Shown piece after piece: positions 14,106 to 14,637 of a stretch of DNA of 32,064 nt. Below the pieces are notes generated by a model. The model had not been told where the DNA came from, did no database searches, and was given only the letters and a program-made list of their open reading frames with translations. Positions within the stretch are counted from its first letter, which is position 1, and each line of letters opens with the position of its first letter. Source of the DNA: a virus; the IMG/VR virus record IMGVR_UViG_3300037184_000101, positions 1 to 32,064 of that record; one strand, given 5' to 3'. The position numbers and the translations under genes were made by a program.

Positions 14106-14349
14106 AATTACAAGTCCGCTACGACAGCTTTTTCACACCGTAGTTTCCTCAGTCGCCCACGCCTCCGTTCAAGGTTAGTGAGAAACATAGCCGAGTTTCT
14201 TTGCAGAAGGAGGAACGTCTCTGCACTTTCTCGACGCAAGCACCATATACGCCTCGGGAGAACACCGATATTGCCGAGTTGTGCGGGCGATTCATGGTGA
14301 CAAGCAACGGTTCGTATCTGTCCCTGCCTGTAAGGACGGACTTGTAAAT
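14106..14349 (-). ncRNA. candidate structured spacer RNA between two tRNA-Ser genes (termini base-pair)
   Basis: About 240 nt, non-coding. 14110-14118 (acaagtccg) is the reverse complement of 14337-14345 (cggacttgt). An adjacent second helix pairs gacag (14123-14127) with ctgtc (14318-14322). Internal hairpins are present. Confidence 0.3.
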
Positions 14350-14437
14350 TGGCGGTTAGGGAGAGATTTGAACTCTCGGAGGTTTTATCCTCGCATGATT
14401 TCCAATCATGTACCTTAAGCCACTCAGCCACCTAACC
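14350..14437 (-). tRNA. tRNA-Ser(GGA), type II
   Basis: GGTTAGG...CCTAACC-G-CCA. Anticodon stem CATGA/TCATG with loop TTGGAAA. Long variable arm. T-arm GAGAG-TTCAAAT-CTCTC. Confidence 0.8.
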
Positions 14438-14637
14438 AGTCTTGATGTAGTTCTTATGACCCTTTTATACCTAGACCGATCTCGCCGTCACCGCAAAGTC
14501 ACTCTTTGGGTTGTGACCTCCCGCCACGGTCTTCGAAACAACTCAAGTTTCTACTTCTTGCCCGTGTTCGTCCCATGTGTAAACACTATGAGAATTAAGA
14601 TTTTGGTATGTCTGCTACATCAAAGAACTTACTAAAT
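14438..14637 (-). ncRNA. candidate structured spacer RNA between tRNA-Ser and tRNA-Gln (termini base-pair)
   Basis: About 200 nt, non-coding. 14442-14450 (ttgatgtag) is complementary to 14615-14623 (ctacatcaa). Internal GUCAC..GUGAC hairpin. Confidence 0.3.

Follow-up and report, generated by a model that had tools for sequence, protein, structure and literature searches.

A candidate structured RNA family in tRNA operons of uncultured phages and an orphan insert beside it

The DNA analyzed here, IMG/VR virus record IMGVR_UViG_3300037184_000101, is an entire metagenome contig of 32,064 base pairs (bp), referred to below as the window. It derives from an uncultured, myovirus-like phage. Two long spacers, A and B, lie between transfer RNA (tRNA) genes of one operon and the two ends of each are complementary. 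Spacer B (14438-14637, minus strand) encodes a conserved, structured non-coding RNA. Its family, not described before, has a long form of approximately 200 nucleotides (nt) and a short form of approximately 160 nt. With moderate confidence, the family is proposed to be one of uncultured, tRNA-rich, myovirus-like phages in which B is excised as a stable, trans-acting RNA, while A is an orphan insert.

Homologues, covariation and fold of spacer B

Spacer B was matched by covariance model R1 at 204 bits. Viral and metagenomic contigs yielded approximately 20 distinct homologues. The contigs bearing B came from soil- and wetland-type metagenomes and were up to 368 kb in length. Related loci were obtained from five sources: the neighbouring open reading frame (ORF) of 184 amino acids (aa) as an anchor, the two invariant sequence blocks of B as DNA patterns, alignment of the downstream 89-aa membrane protein, protein-database homologues of that membrane protein, and covariance model R1, which located B inside loci. 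Single-block scans with 16-17-mers gave mostly chance matches, the real ones being those on contigs with both blocks. Two-block matches in L031 (a metagenome) and L039 (a Clostridia genome) were also attributed to chance. The two-block pattern was absent from one genome per GTDB species and B was absent from cultured phages at blastn sensitivity. The members were as follows.

Long form (approximately 200 nt): the window, L001, L002, L008, L032, L035, L037, L038, L044, L059, L060, L066
Short form (approximately 160 nt): L043, L045, L046, L048, L051, L052, L062, L064

Spacer B of the window was 70-76% identical to its relatives, compared to 64-76% for the adjacent tRNA-Gln and just 54-66% for the neighbouring 184-aa protein. 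Every homologue started 3-16 nt past the CCA of tRNA-Gln(CUG). Most were followed after 3-7 nt by tRNA-Ser(GGA), canonical or non-canonical. In a more distant lineage (L067/L068) the gap between tRNA-Gln(CUG) and tRNA-Ser(GGA) was 4 nt with no B, and tRNA-Ser(CGA) lay 24 nt further on. As the same tRNAs occur there without it, B is a discrete module, dispensable in that lineage, which can be present or absent; it is not a required processing spacer, and the flanking tRNAs do not need it.

B had been called non-coding from its sequence and this held across the family. No conserved reading frame was found on either strand, and stops in all frames ruled out a coding region. Many G-U pairs of B would become A-C mismatches on the opposite strand, which points to the tRNA strand as the functional one.

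The ends of B pair as originally predicted, 14442-14450 with 14615-14623. This 9-bp run, the closing helix P1, was reached by 24 of 20,000 shuffles. The case for the reality of B rests on covariation and not on thermodynamics. In a MAFFT alignment of eight long-form sequences 98.2% of cells were paired, compared to 26-44% when partners were slid by 1-3 columns. Double changes were found in 16 of 44 pairs and none of 500 shuffles reached any observed measure. With 11 long-form sequences, aligned by fitting to the model, a procedure biased towards the structure, 95.9% of cells were paired and half of the pairs (22/44) showed double changes. Six short-form sequences in an independent MAFFT alignment gave 96.8% paired cells, compared to 32-44% when slid, with double changes in 23 of 43 pairs. 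Over the three alignments shuffles reached the observed value in 0/500 cases on four of five measures and in at most 2/500 on the fifth, figures which overstate significance since the sequences are related; the slid-partner controls are fairer. The covariation check named in the original prediction was thus borne out for B, which has what is generally expected of a conserved structured non-coding RNA, namely homologues with compensatory changes that maintain the helices. The helices were located as follows.

14614-14623, minus strand: 5' strand of P1, the closing helix, paired with 14442-14451; compensatory U-A to C-G and other changes
14442-14451, minus strand: 3' strand of P1, ending 4 nt before tRNA-Ser(GGA)
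14572-14592, minus strand: hairpin P2, nine pairs, double changes in four
14525-14566, minus strand: P3 (14562-14566/14525-14529), internal loop and P3a (14547-14551/14535-14539)
14497-14522, minus strand: H-type pseudoknot (GGG 14520-14522/CCC 14508-14510) and P4 (14513-14518/14497-14502)
14474-14489, minus strand: hairpin P5, GAC/GUC changed to GCC/GGC in L038

P1 comprises 9 bp, then a bulge, then 3-4 bp (P1b). P1b was GACA/UGUC in most members and GGAGA/UCUCC in L044. The internal hairpins that had been predicted were found as P2, P3a, P4 and P5, with covariation. Four of five pairs showed double changes in P3 and likewise in P3a. The internal loop in P3, AAGUAG opposite CGAAGA, was invariant in long and short forms; its AGUA/GAA signature is that of loop-E or sarcin-ricin motifs. 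P3a is capped by a 7-nt loop, UURARWU. P4 covaries and its loop, AACCCAAAGA, holds a CCY that pairs with an RGG just 5' of the P4 hairpin. The third loop of this pseudoknot is A-rich (AAAGA). All 45 of its cells were paired, the first pair being G-C in nine sequences and A-U in six, a switch that occurred independently in L044 (long form) and L045 (short form). In the short form P5 is a 6-bp hairpin which abuts the 3' strand of P1, with five of its six pairs covarying. The architecture and the invariant unpaired nucleotides are typical of RNAs with a defined three-dimensional shape and not of a mere processing stem.

Two other pairings were considered. The extended outer pairing of P4 given by RNAalifold was weaker than the pseudoknot, with cells unpaired in two to three sequences. 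A pseudoknot between the 5' leader of B (UCUUUG) and the P4 loop (CAAAGA) is possible where the leader is long; the leader is 3 nt in several short forms and this pairing was not adopted.

Proposed role of spacer B and comparison with known RNAs

The operon runs from the promoter through tRNA-Gln(CUG), spacer B, tRNA-Ser(GGA) and spacer A to a tRNA-Ser(CGA)-like gene. Its features around B are listed in the order of transcription.

14791-14770, minus strand: terminator of the upstream gene, preceding the tRNA-operon promoter
14724-14751, minus strand: sigma-70-type promoter (TTGACA, 16 nt, TATATT; 11 of 12 matches; upstream TG)
14638-14711, minus strand: tRNA-Gln(CUG), 5' neighbour of B (ARAGORN; Rfam, 47.6 bits)
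14438-14637, minus strand: spacer B
14350-14437, minus strand: tRNA-Ser(GGA) (ARAGORN; Rfam)

The promoter was located where the original prediction had placed it, and TTGACA...TATATT was likewise found upstream of tRNA-Gln in L001, L002 and L008. ATTT directly followed 12 of 18 tRNAs in the window. Most of the others had a similar T-rich trailer, regardless of the feature downstream. The same U-rich trailer after almost every tRNA suggests a single generic processing route by host enzymes.

B would be transcribed from this promoter within the unit tRNA-Gln(CUG)/B/tRNA-Ser(GGA). P1 closes the RNA and encloses a multi-helix junction (P1b, P2, P3-P3a, P4, P5). The host enzymes that mature the flanking tRNAs would excise B too, with a first cut within the AUUU trailer after tRNA-Gln and a second by RNase P where the next tRNA begins, 3-7 nt past P1. 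P1 would seal the ends of the excised RNA against exonucleases. B would then accumulate and act in trans through its folded surface, on a partner that may be a protein or RNA tied to translation or tRNA metabolism.

Several points weigh against this account. The single-sequence fold of B was unremarkable (z = -1.23) and the window copy carries two mismatches in P1/P1b (C-A and A-G). The pseudoknot is supported by one covarying pair, and the shuffle controls are inflated by relatedness as described above. No tRNA comes after B in L045 and L052, where an ORF or a U-run lies instead, so RNase P cannot set the 3' end everywhere. The phages carrying B are uncultured and known solely from metagenomes. 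The trans-acting role and the partner of B are pure inference, and B may just as well serve tRNA-Gln(CUG) in cis, given how strictly the two are linked.

That linkage keeps alive a cis or tRNA-Gln-specific role of B, including a theta-like ribozyme. In its broader form this would make B a new functional RNA class dedicated to tRNA-Gln(CUG), either a ribozyme acting on its 3' end or a decoy or cofactor binding a host factor (synthetase, amidotransferase or anti-phage anticodon nuclease). Such a role was judged unlikely. Were it true, phage tRNA operons would be launch pads for unrelated end-sealed RNAs, namely B, A, and two elements described below, RNA C and the spacer at 24013-24184.

A new self-cleaving or catalytic RNA serving tRNA-Gln(CUG) in cis, for example by making its 3' end, the role proposed for theta ribozymes at other phage tRNAs, was considered unlikely. 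The constant position of B 3-16 nt past the CCA and its conserved, tertiary-looking fold with a pseudoknot of ribozyme complexity would suit such a function. Theta ribozymes, which are minimal ribozymes like that of hepatitis delta virus (HDV), are positioned so that cleavage falls at the 3' end of phage tRNAs (PMC10879173), and B likewise lies directly downstream of a phage tRNA gene, in the same orientation. Theta ribozymes, however, are small and have the HDV nested double pseudoknot, while B is 160-200 nt and mostly nested, with one local H-type pseudoknot. No ribozyme family in Rfam, HDV-type included, matched B of the window, L001 or L048 at expect values (E) up to 10. In addition, the 17 other tRNAs of the window do without B and have the same trailer, and relatives without B exist.

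RNase III-type processing stems, or spacers that are merely cis structures organizing maturation of the flanking tRNAs, were considered improbable. The original prediction had compared the end-pairing to the RNase III stems of ribosomal RNA (rRNA) operons. Both spacers do lie between tRNAs of one transcription unit, and A and B share end complementarity within a polycistronic stable-RNA transcript with those operons. The RNase III stems of rRNA operons are roughly two helical turns, approximately 20 bp or more. The terminal helices here are far too short (9 bp in B and 11 bp in A), are broken by bulges or branches, close multi-helix folds and bracket no mature rRNA or tRNA. The invariant loops, loop-E-like motif and pseudoknot of B exceed the needs of a stem. 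L067/L068 mature the same tRNA trio with spacers of 4 nt and 24 nt, and the AUUU-type trailer is the same on all tRNAs. The comparison was therefore not upheld.

It is extremely improbable that B is an expanded class-II tRNA derivative, for which the order and number of helices (acceptor-, D-, anticodon-, variable- and T-like), the 7-nt P3a loop in the anticodon position and the last helix abutting the closing stem (short-form P5 directly beside the P1 3' strand) could be cited, as neither the tRNA model nor ARAGORN matched it and it lacks CCA and the T- and D-loop signatures, while the sequence of its 'anticodon' loop varies.

B was also compared with known RNAs. At gathering thresholds Rfam 15 (4227 covariance models) returned only tRNAs in the whole window. 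At E up to 10 nothing credible was found in A or B of the window, B of L001 or the short-form B of L048, and no match to the ROOL/GOLLD models (RF03087/RF01998-type) was obtained for B. A known RNA family for B was thereby ruled out at gathering and permissive thresholds in three family members, and the Rfam check named in the original prediction returned no family for either spacer. Neither ARAGORN nor RF00005 called a tRNA or tRNA-like signal in A or B. B is new relative to Rfam 15; it was not compared with the existing catalogue of 10,006 viral candidate RNAs (PMC10690425).

The original prediction had also pointed to stable small RNAs embedded in phage tRNA clusters. The analogy is apt for B, which has covariation, and falls away for A, which has no homologue. 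RNAC and RNAD of phage T4 (species 1 and 2 stable RNAs, rnaC/rnaD) are small non-tRNA RNAs of unknown function on the tRNA strand of the tRNA cluster (PMC3014915, PMC9697503). They arise from the T4 tRNA region, a setting comparable to that of B, which likewise lies inside a phage tRNA cluster on the tRNA strand. They are smaller than B, which has a multi-helix junction and a pseudoknot. T4 RNAC has a tRNA-like T arm (CCGGGUUCGAAUCCCGG) while B has none. Homology was ruled out, the best R1 score in the T4 tRNA region with filters off being 5.6 bits (E 0.16). ROOL and GOLLD are covariation-defined RNAs of phages and prophages, often near tRNA islands and of unknown function (bioRxiv 10.1101/2024.12.08.627333). 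B shares with them a covariation-defined structure in phages and the tRNA setting. At 500-800 nt they are approximately 3-4 times larger than B (160-200 nt), and nothing suggests that B multimerizes.

Functional by-products of tRNA-operon processing are also known, an example being the 3'ETS-leuZ small RNA sponge of Escherichia coli. Such spacers are short and act by linear base-pairing, while B is large and compact with conserved tertiary-type motifs. Structured RNAs other than tRNAs are already known from phage tRNA clusters, and B adds a new family to this kind.

Spacer A and the slot between the tRNA-Ser genes

Spacer A and its surroundings comprised the following.

14106-14349, minus strand: spacer A, an orphan of 244 nt whose ends form a perfect inverted repeat of 11 bp (14108-14118/14337-14347)
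14015-14105, minus strand: non-canonical tRNA-Ser(CGA)-like gene bounding spacer A (class-II cloverleaf, z = -3.17)
13968-13996, minus strand: next promoter, for the 89-aa membrane-protein gene

No terminator was found between the tRNA operon and the 13968-13996 promoter. The gene at 14015-14105 was not called by ARAGORN or Rfam. Its predicted fold is nevertheless a perfect class-II cloverleaf in which the anticodon is CGA, and in relatives the syntenic position is taken by canonical tRNA-Ser(CGA) genes.

On the minus strand of A, UUACAAGUCCG (14347-14337) is the perfect complement of CGGACUUGUAA (14118-14108). The pairing that had been predicted (14110-14118 with 14337-14345) lies within these 11 bp. 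An end-to-end run of this length was reached by 4 of 20,000 shuffles. A folds at -84 kcal/mol (RNAfold, z = -3.16), with none of 200 shuffles as stable, and the terminal stem of 11 bp leads into a branch. A second helix, gacag/ctgtc, had also been predicted. The pentamers are present at 14123-14127 and 14318-14322; they are not partners in the minimum-energy fold.

Lack of conservation between related phages had been named in advance as grounds for refutation, and searches of approximately 25 related loci with blastn, nhmmer and tblastn found nothing similar to A. Viral contigs scanned with two patterns (a 26-mer and the two termini) gave no match and no homologue was found in cultured phages. 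The sole other occurrence was a 100% identical copy in an independent Logan assembly (L054), so A is not an assembly artefact. The nearest relatives in 5.8 billion proteins were only 82% identical in the neighbouring gene. A thus lacks the homologues and conservation expected of a conserved structured non-coding RNA, and on these searches its claim to be one is not supported.

Three possible origins of similarity were set aside. A and B have no mutual sequence similarity, which ruled them out as paralogues; they are unrelated and call for separate explanations. The idea that A is a decayed form of ORF1, which fills the slot in relatives, was ruled out (hhalign probability 0.04%). A 14-nt match of the 3' end of A to the PhoH gene of L001/L002 was a chance match, as it lies inside coding sequence and is not in PhoH of the window.

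The slot between the two tRNA-Ser genes is hypervariable across relatives. The occupants found were as follows.

64-aa basic ORF: L001, L002, L037, L059 and L066; broken in L038
Second ORF: L001 and L038
HNH endonuclease: L032
216-aa prepilin-like ORF: L060
RNA 'C', approximately 100 nt, containing a T arm: L008 518-620, L037 763-866, L045 1669-1770, L046 2508-2613, L052 828-931, L062 approximately 1682-1779, L064 approximately 1476-1578
Nothing, 24 nt: L067

The 64-aa protein is very basic (MSHGP...KRRAARRVR...WGYWEWC) and starts directly after tRNA-Ser(GGA) (L001 5022-5216, L002 1424-1618). It is absent from the window. RNA C has 81% column identity, a T-arm-like hairpin (GRAGG-UUCGAUU-CCUYN) and a second covarying hairpin. 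It had no Rfam match and is also absent from the window. HNH/NUMOD endonuclease genes were scattered through the tRNA regions of relatives (L032, L061).

A third end-paired orphan spacer was found in the window at 24013-24184 (minus strand, 172 nt), between tRNA-Ser(UGA) and tRNA-Val(UAC). Of the same design as A and B, it is arranged as AUUU-AC, stem, interior, stem, AUU, and its long terminal stem pairs ACCUUGAGU...GUGAGGC with GCCUCACUCAAGGU. The fold gave z = -2.87 and stops were present in all frames. No homologue was found and the two flanking tRNAs are adjacent in L055. The 270 nt at 24277-24546 (minus strand), after tRNA-Gln(UUG), were ruled out as an RNA candidate, containing promoter-like TTGACA...TATATT and a small Cys-rich, zinc-ribbon-like ORF, with a fold of z = -0.32.

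A is best described as a lineage-specific insert in this slot; its stem and fold are compatible both with an orphan structured RNA and with the remnant of an element that has inverted repeats at its ends. It is possible, if tentative, that A and the similar orphan at 24013-24184 are miniature inserted elements or remnants in AU-rich tRNA-tRNA junctions and not functional RNAs. The perfect 11-bp terminal inverted repeat, the higher GC content of A (51% compared to 44% in the window) and its singleton status in a slot filled differently in almost all relatives agree with this, as do the homing endonuclease genes in the same slot elsewhere. ATT flanks A on both sides, though ATT is also the generic tRNA trailer. 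Against an inserted element, there is one copy in the window and none elsewhere in the termini scan of viral contigs, no transposase is present, and the termini of A and 24013-24184 are unrelated. The whole of A, and not just its ends, also folds unusually stably.

Spacer A had been called non-coding as well, and here an ATG ORF of 48 aa (14152-14295) was present, with one frame stop-free over 79 codons through the whole spacer. That A encodes a small protein was nevertheless regarded as very improbable: small ORFs are often carried in the slot of relatives, but the 48-aa ORF has no Shine-Dalgarno sequence, its ATG is not tRNA-proximal as in those ORFs, and it had no similarity to their ORF1 and no tblastn match in any locus.

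Other features of the region and significance

The window contains 18-20 tRNA genes (ARAGORN, Rfam), all on the minus strand, with ORFs interspersed. A baseplate-wedge PHROG and PhoH are present. No cultured relative of the phage was found.

Non-canonical tRNAs (Ser-CGA, Ser-GGA, Ser-UGA and Val-UAC) recurred and were missed by ARAGORN and the Rfam tRNA model. They were located as follows.

Window: 14015-14105, minus strand
L048: approximately 1639-1725
L051: approximately 2721-2808
L043: approximately 2444-2533
L055: approximately 1363-1452 and approximately 1456-1532

Their D arm resembles CCGGG-UGAGA-CUCGG, without GG, and GGCGGGA, GGCAGGA or GGCAGAA replaces the TPsiC sequence of the T loop. 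These tRNAs end in CCA and are normal in their acceptor, anticodon and variable arms. The odd D arm and T loop of the window gene were also present in L048, L051 and L055. As the loss of both signatures is conserved across phages, a functional variant elbow is suggested over pseudogenes. At 25830-25909 (minus strand) a tRNA only just reached the Rfam gathering score, equalling it at 29.0 bits, and was not called by ARAGORN; this may be another non-canonical tRNA.

An ATG lies 4 nt (AUUU/UUUU) or 9 nt past the CCA of six tRNAs with 3' ends at 20040, 20878, 22549, 23844, 30684 and 31722 (minus strand). The ORFs that follow are 63-137 aa with no space for a Shine-Dalgarno sequence, and ORF1 of the slot in relatives starts likewise. 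These look like tRNA-punctuated, near-leaderless mRNAs, reminiscent of mitochondrial transcript processing.

An 850-aa ORF at 27745-30297 (minus strand) is similar to major vault protein, with a Pfam match to MVP_shoulder (E 7.6e-19) and weaker ones to Vault_3 and Band_7/SPFH. No relatives of it were found in viral contigs, a scan that is uninformative on co-occurrence with B. Precomputed Pfam matches indicate that an intein with a LAGLIDADG endonuclease splits the PhoH gene of L067/L068 (3490-4673).

End-pairing alone was a poor predictor, with one of the three end-paired spacers of the window being conserved. Thousands of candidate viral structured RNAs already exist. T4 RNAC and RNAD first showed that phage tRNA clusters can contain RNAs other than tRNAs, and decades later it is still not known what they do. 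B, unrelated to them, is a second case. It adds approximately 20 diverged members, a well-supported fold with the complexity of a riboswitch or ribozyme, absolute linkage to one tRNA and natural lineages without it. The size of B would also permit structure determination and pull-downs. With these features, the function of such RNAs becomes a question that can be approached directly.

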